DNA from: Bispira polyomma
Taxonomy: Eukaryota
Direction: 5' to 3'
DNA length: 64,000 bases
NCBI GenBank assembly: GCA_965649765.1
Contig: OZ287751.1
Span: 57,040,001-57,104,000, forward strand
The notes under the pieces were generated by a model. It was not told where the DNA came from. It was given only the letters and a program-made list of their open reading frames with translations, and did not search any database. Position numbers and translations under genes: made by a program. The first letter of the stretch is position 1. Each line of letters begins with the position of its first letter. Of the stretch, positions 21,470-27,500 are shown in pieces.

Positions 21470-21562
21470 TTATCTTCTCCTTCGAGTGCCACTGGCTGAA
21501 CGACTACGACTCTTCCTTCTGCGGTCTGGACTTCTCACTCTTCGACTTATTGTTTCTCGCTC
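21470..21562 (-). CDS. ACIN1: ACIN1 exon 20 (RS-rich tail, TAA stop)
   Basis: [38 protein letters not shown]. Confidence 0.85.
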   Translation of the reverse strand, partial: ERETISRRVRSPDRRRKSRSRSASGTRRRR

Positions 21563-24500
21563 CTACAAAAGACAACACGTTATATCATCAATTACACACT
21601 GACATTCTGTCCCCTACAAAAGACAACAAGTTTTTCATCAATCACACCCTGACATTCTCTCTCCTACAAAAGACAACAAGTTATATCATCAATCACACAC
21701 ATACATTCTCTCCTACAAAAGACAACAAGTTATATCATCAATCACACATTGACATTCTTCCTCCTACAAAAGACAACAAATTATATCATCAATTACACAC
21801 TGACATTCTGTCTCCTACAAAAGACAAGTTATTTTATCAATTACACACTGACATTCTGTCTTCTACAAAAGACAAGTTATATTATCAATCACACACTGAC
21901 ATTCTCTCTTCTACAAAAGACAACAAGTTATAACATCAATTACACACTGACATTTATTTCAACACACACTGTACACACACACTGTACACACACAATATAC
22001 ACACACCTAGACACCCACCTTACGCAGACTCTCCCTCTCCATCAACCTCTGCTTTCTCTCCTGCTCCTCCTGCTCTTCCCGCTGTTTTCTACGTTCCAGA
22101 CGCTGTTCTTCTTCTTTTTTCTTCAATGTAGCTTTATTCTCATACTACAAAAACAAAACGGAAACACTAAATATAAACTACAGTATAAAACCTCAATTAT
22201 CGTAACTTCTATTAACCAGGCCTAGTCCACATAGCAAGTGTTTAGTGTTCTAGTCCAAATCTACAAATATGGGTGCTGATGTCTGGTAGTTTTAAAGTGC
22301 AGGTGCTCTCCGGTTCTTCAGTCAGAGGCAGCCACTATATACAGGGCGTGGACCTGTAGTTTTGAAGAGCAGATGCTTACCTGTTCTTCAGTGAGAGGGA
22401 GCCAGTATATACAGGGCGTGGACTTGGTCTTCCTGAACAAATCATCCAGCAGTTTAGCAGGTGGTTCCTCTACAGCCGCAGCGGTGGCCGTGGCTTTTCT
22501 CTCTGCAGAGATAAATTTTGCAAATAATGTCACTGGTGATTTTGAATGAATGTTTTAGAGACACTAAATTTTACTTTTATAATGCTATACTTTCAGTCAA
22601 AAATAGACTAAATTAAACTTTTTTTAAAGTGAAAGTACTATTTATGAAGGCATTCATGAACACATTTCAAATGATTCCCAAATCAATGCATTCGTATCCG
22701 TAAAAAGGGTTAAGTATTTGTATTTGAATACTTTTCACATGTATTCGCCTATGTCTGGATATATTACAACACACATGGTCCTTACATACAAACTTCTCTC
22801 ACACAAGCATCTTGGGAGAGAAACTGGTTTTTGAGAAGGATATCGTCATTTTAGTATAAATAGCAAAATCAACTAGACTTAGTAAAAAAATTTATTACAC
22901 TTTGTATTATTACACTACAAATATATCTAGTTAAATACTGGCGTCCCATTCCATACCCTATTCTCTCCATGGATTATCAGTTGTCCCTCCTACTTCTCCT
23001 CCTGCACTGCCTACTGGCTTCCCAGTCCCAACTTTTCTTGGATTACCATCCCCCCCCCCCCCCCCCCCCCCCTCCCCATCACACACTTCCTGGCATCCCA
23101 TTCCCTTCCACCCAACAGAAAAACTCCCTAGCCTGCCACACCTGTTGTCCTGCGCTCCGTACTGGCGCGCCATACATCCCCCACCCCCACCCAACTTCTA
23201 AACTCTTCTCCTGCGCTTTGTACTGGCGACCAGTTTCCTCCTCTCACTGGAATACCATCCCCACCCCCTCCCCCAATCACACTGGACTTTCTTTAAGTCC
23301 ATTACACAGAATCCTGTCATTCCCTACCTCTCCTCCTGCGCTCCCTACTGGCATCCTGTTCCCTCCTCTCCTTTCTTTCCTTGGACCTGCGTTCCCTCTC
23401 CATAGAGCGCTGTCTGGCTCTCCTGTTTACAGGGGATGGAGATTTGCTTTGCCTCAATTTGTCTCTGTAATGAGAGGTAACAACACAGGTGTAAGACACA
23501 GGGAATGTAGTTTTGAGAACAGTTTCTTAATACTGTGCAGAAACATTTGTGGTCCTATAAAAGCCTTCTCTTGTAAATTTGAATTTGGATATTTAACGTT
23601 CACTCTAGTACCTGTTTAGGTTATATTGGGACTGGTAGTGGGAAACGTTGGACGAAACACTGCATACAGTTGATCAAGGTTCTGCACTAAAACAAGTGGC
23701 ACACAGTAAGGAACTAGCACCTTTTCCACATAGGCATCAACAGGAGTCGAACCCACGCTAGTGGATCCCAGAGGTAAGAGACCAGTGATTGTGAAAATCA
23801 ACCTTGTTAAGTGGAAATCCTGCTTATATAGACATATTTCTCCTGGCCCCTTGAGGTTTGATTTGCATAGAATAAACTGTAGATCGATGTTTAAAATATG
23901 TTTTGACTAAAAATAAACGCTCATCATTGATGCAGCTATTGCTCACTAAATTTACATATGTTGTTTCATAGTTGACCTGGGTGCATACCTAGGGTCACTT
24001 TTGTATTTTAGTGTTTTCCAAATGTACATCATTGACACAACAACGCTGCCACTCACCTGTCCCACTCTCTTATTTTCGGTGCCTCTTTCCTTGGAGGTGT
24101 TTTCTTCTCTTTTTCTGGCTCTGACTGGCGCCGTGAGCGAGGGGGAGGGGCGCGGGCTGGTACTGGGGACGGGGCTTTTGGAGGAGGTGCATCTTTCTCT
24201 AGATAATGGTCCATCTGTGAAACAACAGGAAACAGGTCTTAAAATCTCTCTAAAATACCAAAACTGTCGCTCTTCTTCCAATAGTAATGCTTTCACTGAG
24301 GTTTACGACAGCACATTTCAAAGGTGATTTACATATTCTGTCGTTATTCTGTGTTATATCTGCCGTGTCCAATCTGTTAAGTTTACAAATGGTAACCACT
24401 GTCACCATTGGATGCTAAATATTTAAACATTTTTCAAAGAGAATTCTAAATGTCATGTATTAAATATATATAACTGTTGGTAGTCACCAATAGTAAAGTT

Positions 24501-27500
24501 GTGGTGCTTGTAACAAAGATTCTGTTTTGGGAATTCTCAAATAGGTCACACAACAGTGTAAAACAACCTTATACTGCTTGTAAAATGTCCAGTAGCTGTT
24601 CTATTATGTAGAACCCATTAGCGGAGTGGCAACATGCCCATGAATTATAAGAAATCCTTCGGTGTAGATCAATGGAAAATATCAATGAAATGAAAATAGG
24701 ACAATGAAATAGAGTTTACAATTGAATATTGAGAGAAGTTTGGATTCTTGAGGTTCGATTGTATGTATATAGTTTTGCTGTAATTTTTAACAATTTTTTT
24801 TTTCACCAATTAATTACGTCATTTTGAAGCAAACTTTATCCAGTTATTGATATATTAAATAGGATAACATGGGTTACTTTGTTAATTTGCAAGTATATAA
24901 CATGTATTTCTCCATTTTTCTCCAAAGTAACAACTCTTAATATCAGAAGCTTTAATAAATATAGGTTGCGCTCTACAGAATTCAACTGATTTAATACAAG
25001 TCATGTCCAGGATATCTGATACAACATACACTAGAACCTAAATTATACAAATTTCTATTATTAAATTATTTAATTTCATTAATTCATTTCCAACCAAATA
25101 GCCGAAACTTCTTACAAAAAGTAATTCACAATACCTCTCTCTGTGTCGCAAATTCAACCCTCAATATTTTGGGATTGGAAGATGGCCATCTCGTTCCGTG
25201 AAGTTCATTTCTGGTGGCAACTGCATCTTCTTCATTTTCAAACTACAAAACAAAATTTTGTTCAATACTTATATATGTTACAATGAATTTGAGTAATCAG
25301 GACTTTCACAAAATCAGTGAAAAATTTATGTAGTTTTTACACTGAATTGTATTCAATGAATTTTTCCAAATGCACTTTTTATACTTTCTAGTTACTATTT
25401 TTATTAAATTTCATAATCCAATTGAGATAATATTAACAAGTTCTTGCAAGTTTCAAAAATATTATGAATTACCAAAAAATTATATTTTTATTATTTAGTT
25501 TTATTGTAATGTTGACCAAAGCATTTTCTTTGAAGTTAAAATTTATTCAAGCTGGAAAGGGAGGCAAATATTTATCTCACAACCTTAAATTAAGAAATAT
25601 CTACAGCATTGTGTATTACACTGAATTAAGCTTGTTTTCTCTTCTTTTTGTGTAGACCTCAAAATGTATAACCCCAAATAAACACACTCTCCAAGTGACT
25701 TTCACTTACGGCAGCTAAACAGTGTGACTTGATCTTATCAATCCAGAATCCTTTCTCACGCTTTATCGGGCCACCCTTTTCAATGATCTGCTTCAGCTGT
25801 CCTAGTGTAAACGGTCTCACCAAGTTAAAGATATGAATAAAGCTGGAGGCCGGGCGCCGGGCGGGTGATTGACGGCGCACTTTTTGTGGCACATCAGCAG
25901 GAAGGCTACTCTGCTGGCCGAACTTCCTGATAACGGCTGGCTCTGAGAAAGGGAACAAAGTACATACATGTATAGACAAGACTATTTTTAAAACTCGGTG
26001 CAAATATACAGTCAAACCCTTTTAAGTAGAAGTCTGTTAACTTAATTCACTCTTTTGTTGAAGCAAACAAGTGATAGCACAAAGGTGTTTTCTTTTTAAA
26101 TCTACCCTGGTGAGTGGAAATCCTGCTTAAGTAGATGTATATCTCTTGGTCCTTTGAGGTTCGACTTAAAGAGGTTCAACTGTATATACACAAGACTATT
26201 TTTACAACATGGTGTTTGTTATAACCCCTTTATGTAGAACTCTGTAAACTCAATTTCACCCTTATGTTCAGAGAAAACTGTTGTCACCCCAAAAATGTAT
26301 CTGTTAAGTAGAAATCCTGCTTCAATAGAAATATTTCTTCATTCAACTGTATTTTAACATAATTCCCTGTTCTCTTTATCCTTTTCTAACTCGCTCTGTA
26401 CCCATCTCTTCCCCCTTCTCATTATAAATATCCCTGTATGTCACTCTCCTTACCTTTCTTACTACTGGTCAGTTCCCCACTGACTGGTGCCTCCTTGTTC
26501 TCTTTATCCTCATGTTCTGACTCACTCTGTTACTATAAGTATTCCTTTATCAGTATATCAGTGTCCTTACCTTTCTTACTACTGGTCAGTTCCCCACTGA
26601 CCGGTGCCTCCTTGTTCTCTTTATCCTGTTCTGACTCACTCTGTACCCCTTCTTTCTCCTCTTTGTCCTCCTCTTTATCCTCCTCATCCTTCTGGTCATC
26701 CATCTCCTCGTTATAGTCCAGTTCTGACCCACTCTGGTCAGCAGCCTCCTCTTTCTTCACTGTAGTCCCAGCCACAACTGTCCTCTTGTCCTCTTTCACA
26801 TCCTGGTTAAATGGTCAAACGATACATAGACAAATGTACAGTAAGGATGTCTACTAGCCAACTTCTCTCATGTGAACATTCGATTTTAGGAACACAATTG
26901 CATGGTCCCAAATTTACATTTTTCTTTTAATCTAAAATGCCTCTTCCATTTTATAATATTAATAATAACAATAATATACCAGATTTATTTAGCGCCCTAT
27001 CCATTCATAGGAATGCTCTAAAGCGCTTTTATGAACCTTCTATTATCCGAACCAAACCCCTTGCTCTCTCAACATGTTTAGATAGTAGAGGTTTTGCTGT
27101 ATGAATATTACAACTAATTTTGTCAATATTTTTAATTTTTGATAAACCTATATTATTTTTGAAAACTAATATTTTACAATTGCTTCCTGACGGAACAAAC
27201 GGCTAAATAATAAATGCTATAAATCTTGTACAAAACTGGATGGAGTACACCTTGGCCCATGCCAATCTCTCCACTAAATTTCACGACAACCAGTTTTGTA
27301 GTTCTTTAGTTTTCTAATGCAGTTCGGGAAAGAGCAGAATTCAGGAACGTTGCAGAATTCGGAAACTGTTCCCGTATTCTGCAACCCTGAAGTTCCTGAA
27401 TTCGGGAACTTTGAGAATATTTTAATTTAGGCACTTAACAAAACAAATTGGCAATTTATGATAACTGTTATGTAAATATACATTAATTAATGAAAAACTT

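Follow-up and report, generated by a model that had tools for sequence, protein, structure and literature searches.

Tandem copies of splice junctions in ACIN1 of Bispira polyomma and in other genes of the same genome

Four splice junctions of the gene ACIN1 in Bispira polyomma, three donors and the last acceptor, are accompanied by local copies of themselves. These copies are probably 'mirage' minisatellites, neutral by-products of duplication at work throughout the genome, and the spliceosome probably ignores them. Elsewhere in the genome, myosin, kinesin, DEAD and RRM genes carry copies of this kind at 80 of 712 junctions (11%, about one in nine), and ACIN1 needs no special explanation.

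Results

ACIN1 and its four junction copies

The gene lies on the minus strand of the window (the 64,000-nucleotide stretch of contig OZ287751.1 that was analyzed), where Pfam recognizes a SAP domain at 52702–52968 and an RSB motif at 22381–22503. A protein search matched the RRM exon to named ACIN1 proteins, the best matches being from a cephalopod and a nemertean at 54–58%. The last nine exons (28309–21470) join in frame into 452 codons with a single terminal stop and AG/GT throughout. Two features that define mirages were found: the reading frame through the genuine splice sites is intact, and all four repeat units contain both exon and intron sequence. Exon numbers are those of the initial annotation; our own tally, predicted from the sequence, is about 19–20. 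Junction copies are absent from exons 14 (25710–25942) and 15 (25135–25242, located by tblastn), which encode the first and second parts of the RRM, and from exons 16 (24057–24214) and 19 (22019–22144). For three further arrays (35159–35497, 32086–32391 and 42038–42328) no overlap with supported ACIN1 exons was found.

The initial annotation had reported four local duplications at ACIN1 junctions, and all were confirmed: a 117-nt copy, a decayed 61/125-nt set, a 70-nt pair and a 51-nt unit present eight times. The first derives from exon 13 (26571–26802, with an open frame, AG/GT boundaries and a place in the in-frame chain; donor GT at 26570). Its copy at 26436–26530 repeats 26644–26553 (74 exon and 18 intron nt) and retains an intact donor 117 nt behind the real one, both scoring 11.1; translation through this second donor is computed to reach a stop after 12 codons. 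A partial third copy (26364–26416, repeating 26660–26609) has no donor. Behind exon 17 (23328–23464), the interval 22989–23245 contains three copies of the exon end, decayed and rich in G (23245–23203, 23166–23140 and 23022–22989), which are spaced by 61–148 nt and cover the last 25–43 exon nt. Their donors score −1.6 (lost), 9.6 (strong, at 23142) and 5.4 (weak), compared with 9.4 for the real exon 17 donor. Exon 18 (22381–22502), which carries the RSB motif (Pfam PF16294, E 9e-19), is followed at 22286–22355 by the second unit of a 70-nt tandem pair. The units are 86% alike, with 43 exon and 25 intron nt aligned, and GT is gone from the copy (score 0.4 vs 11.6). The fourth case is the acceptor of exon 20 (21470–21562), the last coding exon, which encodes a 30-residue RS tail and the stop. 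Together with about 9 exon nt, this acceptor forms a minisatellite of eight 51-nt units (21554–21954) with 87% matches, occupying 392 nt of a 456-nt intron. The array supplies seven extra AG sites with scores of 6.8–11.7, four of them above the real acceptor (9.9), and a stop follows each within 7–23 codons. All extra copies in ACIN1 are intronic, with GT kept in 3 of 5 donor copies and AG in 7 of 7 acceptor copies. Such similarity was not reproduced by chance: a 24/30 match occurred in 0 of 200 shuffled flanks.

Junction copies recur in unrelated genes

Junctions were sampled around domain matches in the same genome. Every one of the 73 myosin, 127 kinesin and 57 DEAD matches was used, together with 86 of 118 RRM matches; the other RRM matches, from long frames that appear to lack introns, were left out. 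Once site score, domain ends and nearly identical paralogues had been filtered for, 547 junctions remained. A held-out set, from which 13 of 127 matches were dropped (inside arrays, too short or at the end of a stretch), provided another 165. A protein kinase search returned 130 matches, mostly intronless, none of which was used as an exon; 30 loci entered the repeat library only. Arrays with an edge in the exon were found at 64/547 junctions of the first set and 16/165 of the held-out set. At least one was present in 44 of 153 gene clusters, with one myosin affected at 4 of 12 junctions and four genes at 3 each. The junction calls are supported by adjacent junction pairs, which were phase-compatible in 42 of 48 cases. 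Repeat periods in this sample are BLAST offsets, possibly multiples of the true unit, and we therefore make no claim about unit size.

The idea that the duplications are special to ACIN1 did not survive this comparison. The gene's total, 4 of about 38 junctions, is what the rate in unrelated genes predicts (P = 0.63 for at least 4 of 38). Myosins scored higher than the remainder (20/124 vs 33/421, P = 0.009), in a post hoc comparison. GT was present in 264 of 297 donor copies and AG in 86 of 98 acceptor copies, so splice signals are not purged. GT/AG differ among copies at 6.5%/4.7% per array, against 12–19% for other positions and about 8–12% for nearest neighbors; this slightly lower divergence would also fit weak retention. 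The nearest intact copy was in frame in 15 of 55 arrays, without frame bias.

Array edges favor exon ends over introns

Local duplications are found in about a tenth of intron DNA and at a similar share of the junctions, compared with 1–3% of exon interiors, and those that span a junction always lie on the intron side. Repeats cover 10–16% of intron positions behind donors and 6–11% before acceptors. Raw repeat cover at junctions equaled the intron level, with no excess found. This measure was rejected as a test of junction excess because it counts an intronic array once for every copy but a junction only once. Counted per array, edge density in exon ends was 5.0-fold (3.7–6.5) that in introns, and 3.8-fold in the held-out set, with values of 2.0–2.3 per kb in exon ends and 0.27–0.64 per kb in introns, mildly higher beside exons. 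The 30-mer ratio of exon ends to introns was 4.2 (gene-level bootstrap 2.9–5.8), or 3.8 (2.6–5.3) per first occurrence, and the excess persisted at 27/30 identity (4.2) and in the 90–95% class. Strong look-alike splice sites within introns had copies in just 50/1263 and 46/1278 cases, and arrays at junctions were more often multi-copy (78% vs 53%).

GC content explains little of the excess, since a GC-matched expectation gave 12–15 junction cases against 53 observed. Thirteen neutral simulations, which are crude, gave ratios of 0.95–2.48, with fast intron turnover alone reaching 2.0–2.5. The observed excess is greater than all thirteen and than the GC-matched expectation, and uniform mutation plus a filter is therefore incomplete as an account.

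Discussion

Structures like those in ACIN1 have been described before, as mirages in amphioxus and also in human F7. In two reports (PMC3087553, PMC3902484), amphioxus mirages are recorded for Adh3, the globins BflGb6 and BflGb9, troponin C and PGBD5. There too an intron/exon boundary, at either the 5' or the 3' end, is copied in tandem in the manner of a minisatellite, and many copies, not all, have AG/GT; units measure 10–160 nt there and 51–125 nt in ACIN1. Splicing was undisturbed by RT-PCR and length instability was shown, the mechanism being called unclear; these are results on amphioxus, whereas the ACIN1 copies are known from sequence. The amphioxus cases come from single-gene descriptions in cephalochordates, while the present data provide a rate (11% of 712) and a measure of the excess relative to introns in a 1.04-Gb invertebrate genome. 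The 37-bp VNTR in intron 7 of human F7 (PMC1557585) also has a first unit that spans the exon–intron boundary, so that the real donor is followed by similar pseudo-donors, which are silent behind the first donor. Unlike the present case, it is a single polymorphic locus that concerns donors only and was tested in constructs; the ACIN1 units are longer, fewer in copy and partly decayed, and one of the arrays is at an acceptor. Internal tandem repeats at exon–intron boundaries of human duplicated genes (PMC2812944) likewise indicate that boundary minisatellites can alter gene structure, but those repeats are variable, in young paralogues and supported by transcripts, whereas no structural change was shown for the ACIN1 copies.

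We propose that a short tandem duplication copies the exon end and its splice site into the adjoining intron. A duplication wholly within an exon would be purged, while one across a donor, where the first copy is the real one, or across an acceptor, where the last copy is real, would leave the mRNA unchanged. The array may then expand or decay through unequal exchange, like any minisatellite. The exon copy would be held by selection as intron DNA turns over, which could produce up to about 2.5-fold of the excess. Counting against neutral mirages are the extra ACIN1 acceptors, of which 4/7 outscore the real one, and the silent-site rule from F7 concerns donors only.

The remainder of the exon-end excess may reflect a bias in where duplications start, which would make exon ends preferred sites of their formation. 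Tandem duplications would begin within the last 10–60 exon nt more often than in introns, through, for instance, breaks or template switches linked to exon chromatin, recombination or co-transcriptional splicing. The copies would still be neutral, and this reading, which we rate as less likely than not, adds to the neutral explanation rather than replacing it. It draws on the contrast in edge density, the 30-mer ratio and its persistence at stricter identity, the rarity of copies at intronic look-alikes and the frequency of multi-copy arrays at junctions. On the other side, fast intron turnover by itself goes part of the way in the crude simulations, and the few cases of perfect identity (n = 5) give ratios of 0.8 (0.2–1.8) or 3.5 (0.7–7.8) depending on definition, and those at 29/30 identity give 2.4 or 6.5. 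No junction arrays averaging at least 95% identity were found, and where arrays homogenize, identity is a poor guide to age. Edges were missing from the last 10 exon nt in the first set (0/5470), but this absence was not repeated in the held-out set (3/1650). The initial annotation's idea that exon boundaries are copied by a mutational process therefore stands in part: junction copies are common and edges concentrate in exon ends, but introns at large are filled too.

It is improbable that new exons or introns are now being built from mirage units, a model proposed for amphioxus globins (PMC3087553) and in line with the repeat-driven intron change reported in human paralogues (PMC2812944). The exon-17 copies contain a predicted in-frame cassette exon of 105 nt (23246–23142, minus strand), with a strong donor (9.6) and an 81-nt upstream intron, whose inclusion would leave the reading frame uninterrupted (487 codons, one stop). 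Its acceptor is weak (4.1, a score within the bottom 11% of called acceptors) and is preceded by a G-run, not pyrimidines, and stop-free in-frame extension is offered by just 3/55 arrays of the genome sample.

Very unlikely, in our judgment, is a decoy or feedback function, in which the extra ACIN1 sites would steer splicing toward forms that contain a stop or lack the tail under weak ASAP/EJC guard and so tune the ACIN1 level. The 117-nt copy does have a perfect donor whose use adds a premature stop, use of the upstream exon 20 acceptors would remove the RS tail, and four copies fall within the last 14 junctions (P = 0.063 for at least four, in a segment picked after the fact). A stop upon use is, however, the norm in the genome sample (49/55), the ACIN1 rate over the whole gene is the genome's, and the same anatomy recurs in myosins and kinesins. 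In ACIN1 itself the 70-nt copy lacks GT, and most of another array has decayed. The initial annotation had tied such decoys to a gene that guards splice fidelity, but no enrichment was seen in splicing-regulator genes (RRM genes 6/102 vs motors and helicases 47/443, P = 0.19), and no junction copies were found in PNN or RNPS1 of this genome. In human cells, moreover, the effect of ACIN1 knock-down on recursive sites is called 'very weak' beside PNN and RNPS1 in one report (PMC6224609).

An assembly artefact can practically be dismissed: the copies differ by 5–25% and have their own indels, and public contigs from three runs (at most two samples of one study, possibly the assembly's source) cross the 70-nt pair and the two exon-17 copies at 23245–23140 without differences, with one contig spanning 26455–26593, although contigs from these runs break at the 51-nt array, whose copy number therefore rests on the assembly.

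By itself, then, the ACIN1 case is ordinary, but the measurement is worth keeping: mirages have so far been described gene by gene, and neither a genome-scale rate nor a junction-versus-intron test was found in a literature search that mostly excluded subscription journals. The 11% rate and the 4–5-fold exon-end excess open to testing the question of whether exon ends are preferred sites for new duplications. The choice of a 3' splice site with up to seven equal acceptors ahead of the real one can be tested as well. That duplication is actually aimed at exon ends, with breakpoints 10–60 nt inside exons, as a genome-wide mutation bias directed by gene structure, is doubtful on present evidence. 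If true, one in nine junctions would be trailed by intact spare splice sites as a result, and the spliceosome would routinely pick the right site among equal or stronger neighbors. Mirages would then lengthen introns from their edges and feed raw material for new exons and introns.

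Four junction duplications in ACIN1

The assembly analyzed is a 1.035-Gb animal genome in 75 contigs, and ACIN1 was found on the minus strand of the window. Pfam matches on that strand place its SAP domain at 52702-52968 and its RSB motif at 22381-22503. Of the 439 proteins that the RRM exon matched, 120 were listed, and those with names were mostly ACIN1. The last nine exons form a continuous reading frame of 452 codons with one stop, which is terminal. All four splice-junction duplications reported in the initial annotation, whose exon numbering is kept here, were recovered in the 3' half of the gene. 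A stretch of 74 exonic and 18 intronic bases is copied at the donor of exon 13, giving an intact donor 117 nt downstream, alongside a partial third copy. At exon 17 the donor is followed by three degenerate copies, whose sites score -1.6, 9.6 and 5.4 (genuine site, 9.4), and the exon 18 donor forms a 70-nt pair with GT missing from the second unit. At the exon 20 acceptor, eight 51-nt units occupy 392 nt of a 456-nt intron and supply seven additional AG sites scoring 6.8–11.7 (real acceptor, 9.9). Judged by the R/S-rich ends of three relatives, the genuine acceptor would be the last unit; each extra one would lead to a stop within 7–23 codons, replacing the 30-residue RS tail. Public contigs from one study, possibly the assembly's own source, are identical over the 70-nt pair and two exon 17 copies. 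A cassette exon predicted at 23246-23142 would keep the frame and has a weak acceptor.

The ACIN1 duplications belong to a known kind, the mirages of amphioxus, which two reports describe as tandem copies of intron/exon boundaries that reportedly leave splicing undisturbed and are of unclear origin (PMC3087553; PMC3902484). Human studies add a donor case with an experimental test, F7 intron 7 (PMC1557585), and repeat-driven intron change in paralogues (PMC2812944). No genome-scale test of mirages was found in the literature searched, which lay mostly outside subscription journals.

Several other repeats were observed. The 33-nt coding repeat (21 units, K/D/E-rich; 43933-44628) within a 1.8-kb ACIN1 exon is a series of in-frame duplications tolerated by exon DNA. 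A 61-nt minisatellite (6.7 units, 124-nt higher order; 20365-20831) probably lies in the ACIN1 3' UTR, since it directly precedes minus-strand AATAAA sites at 20337 and 20205. An ACIN1 intron holds a minus-strand tyrosine-recombinase retrotransposon (36183-40767), in which Pfam matches mark an RT/RNase H frame at 37097-39382 and an integrase-family frame at 36183-36731; its terminal repeats possibly correspond to a set of short repeats at 35159-35497. Interspersed repeats of very high copy number (contig depth summing to as much as 1e6), related to one another, lie in the introns that follow exons 16 and 13 (about 23576-23880 and 26000-26340), and MITE-like 96-nt inverted arms, 88% complementary and 284 nt apart, at 27317-27792. 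A membrane-transporter-like frame recurs in plus-strand fragments across 1793-12236 (3351-4244, 5370-5675 and 11652-12236), with no Pfam match in the two scanned. Elsewhere in the genome, intronless protein kinase frames form large families (sampled loci L097-L121; G000:C4:97.6-99.1 Mb), one dispersed across most chromosomes (411-418 aa) and another in a tandem cluster.

Array edges are enriched at exon ends

Exons were taken from 343 Pfam matches in the assembly to myosin, kinesin, RRM and DEAD families, with flanks retrieved, and splice sites were called with matrices trained on the same exons. Filtering left 547 junctions; as a control on the calls, 42 of 48 adjacent exon pairs were phase-compatible. 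Three myosin genes that are almost identical and lie on separate chromosomes (G000:C8:1226545, C11:4180277 and C13:27302335) were counted once; a donor mirage occurs in at least one of them.

A junction-centred 30-mer had a copy matching at 24/30 inside 500 nt at 56 of the 547 junctions. Raw repeat cover by this test showed no excess at the junctions over adjoining introns: donors had 12.5% and acceptors 8.2%, against 10-16% in the introns behind donors and 6-11% in those ahead of acceptors; exon positions deeper than 30 nt had 1-3%. Local duplication is therefore common everywhere except exons. Raw cover is the wrong null, however, because an intronic array is counted per copy and a junction once. 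When only the exon-nearest unit was counted, 53/545 junctions (9.7%) scored versus 2.3% of intron positions 200-900 nt off, a ratio of 4.2 (2.9-5.8 on bootstrapping over genes) that became 3.8 (2.6-5.3) when scored per first occurrence. The GC-matched expectation was 12-15 against these 53, shuffled flanks gave 0/200 matches, and strong intronic look-alike splice sites carried a copy in 4.0% and 3.6% of cases. BLAST-defined arrays agreed, with an edge 12-86 nt within the exon at 64/547 junctions. A held-out set of 114 additional exons collected by tblastn gave 16/165 junctions (rate ratio 3.8, 2.0-7.0); both sets combined gave 80/712 (5.0, 3.7-6.5), with no clear difference between donors (49/368) and acceptors (31/344; P=0.075). 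The boundary-copying mutational process proposed initially is thus supported in part: counted per array, edges are 4-5 times as frequent at exon ends as in introns, but raw cover is equal in introns.

Within the copies, GT is kept in 264/297 and AG in 86/98, a survival not below that of neighbouring bases and slightly above it. Among nearest intact copies, 15/55 are in frame, and use of 49/55 would introduce a stop. These features are compatible with tolerated, silent copies.

Possible causes of the excess

Thirteen toy simulations combining uniform duplication, constrained exons and intron turnover gave exon-end excesses of 0.95-2.48x; the one with a near-exon rise of 1.44 (observed, 1.3-1.4) gave 2.0 (1.5-2.7). 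On these models roughly half of the log-scale excess would be passive, and the rest lies beyond what the simulations produce. That duplications start preferentially at exon ends is a tentative explanation, which we consider rather less probable than the absence of such a bias: the five perfect-identity cases give a ratio of 0.8 or 3.5 depending on definition, and no junction array reaches 95% or higher mean identity.

ACIN1 compared with other genes

ACIN1 is not special in mirage number. It has four among about 38 junctions (P=0.63); their clustering in the last 14 gives P=0.063 for a stretch chosen post hoc. One myosin has them at 4 of 12 sampled junctions and four more genes have 3 each, and the counts across 153 gene clusters depart little from a binomial distribution (P=0.08). 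That myosin (G000:C3:96583158-96603000), with two mirages longer than 1.5 kb, is denser than ACIN1. In human cells, one report has recursive sites repressed by PNN and RNPS1 far more than by ACIN1 (PMC6224609). Here PNN, located by PF04696, had no array at any edge of its eight called exons. For RNPS1, a motif was used to pick the locus among RRM matches that presumably encodes it, and its five fitting exons had no exon-edge array. The other suggestion of the initial annotation, a decoy splice-site system in a gene guarding splice fidelity, is thus very improbable, with ACIN1 at the genome rate, mirages at 6/102 RRM-gene junctions and none at the exons called for PNN or assigned to RNPS1. An ab initio exon candidate within an array at the RNPS1 locus was rejected as unlike RNPS1. 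A separate RRM exon (G000:C11:27942840-27943124) is wholly duplicated in tandem, 165 nt apart with both copies open, and is possibly a tandem exon instead of a mirage.

The lasting value of the analysis lies in the measured junction rate of 11% and the 4-5x excess of array edges at exon ends.
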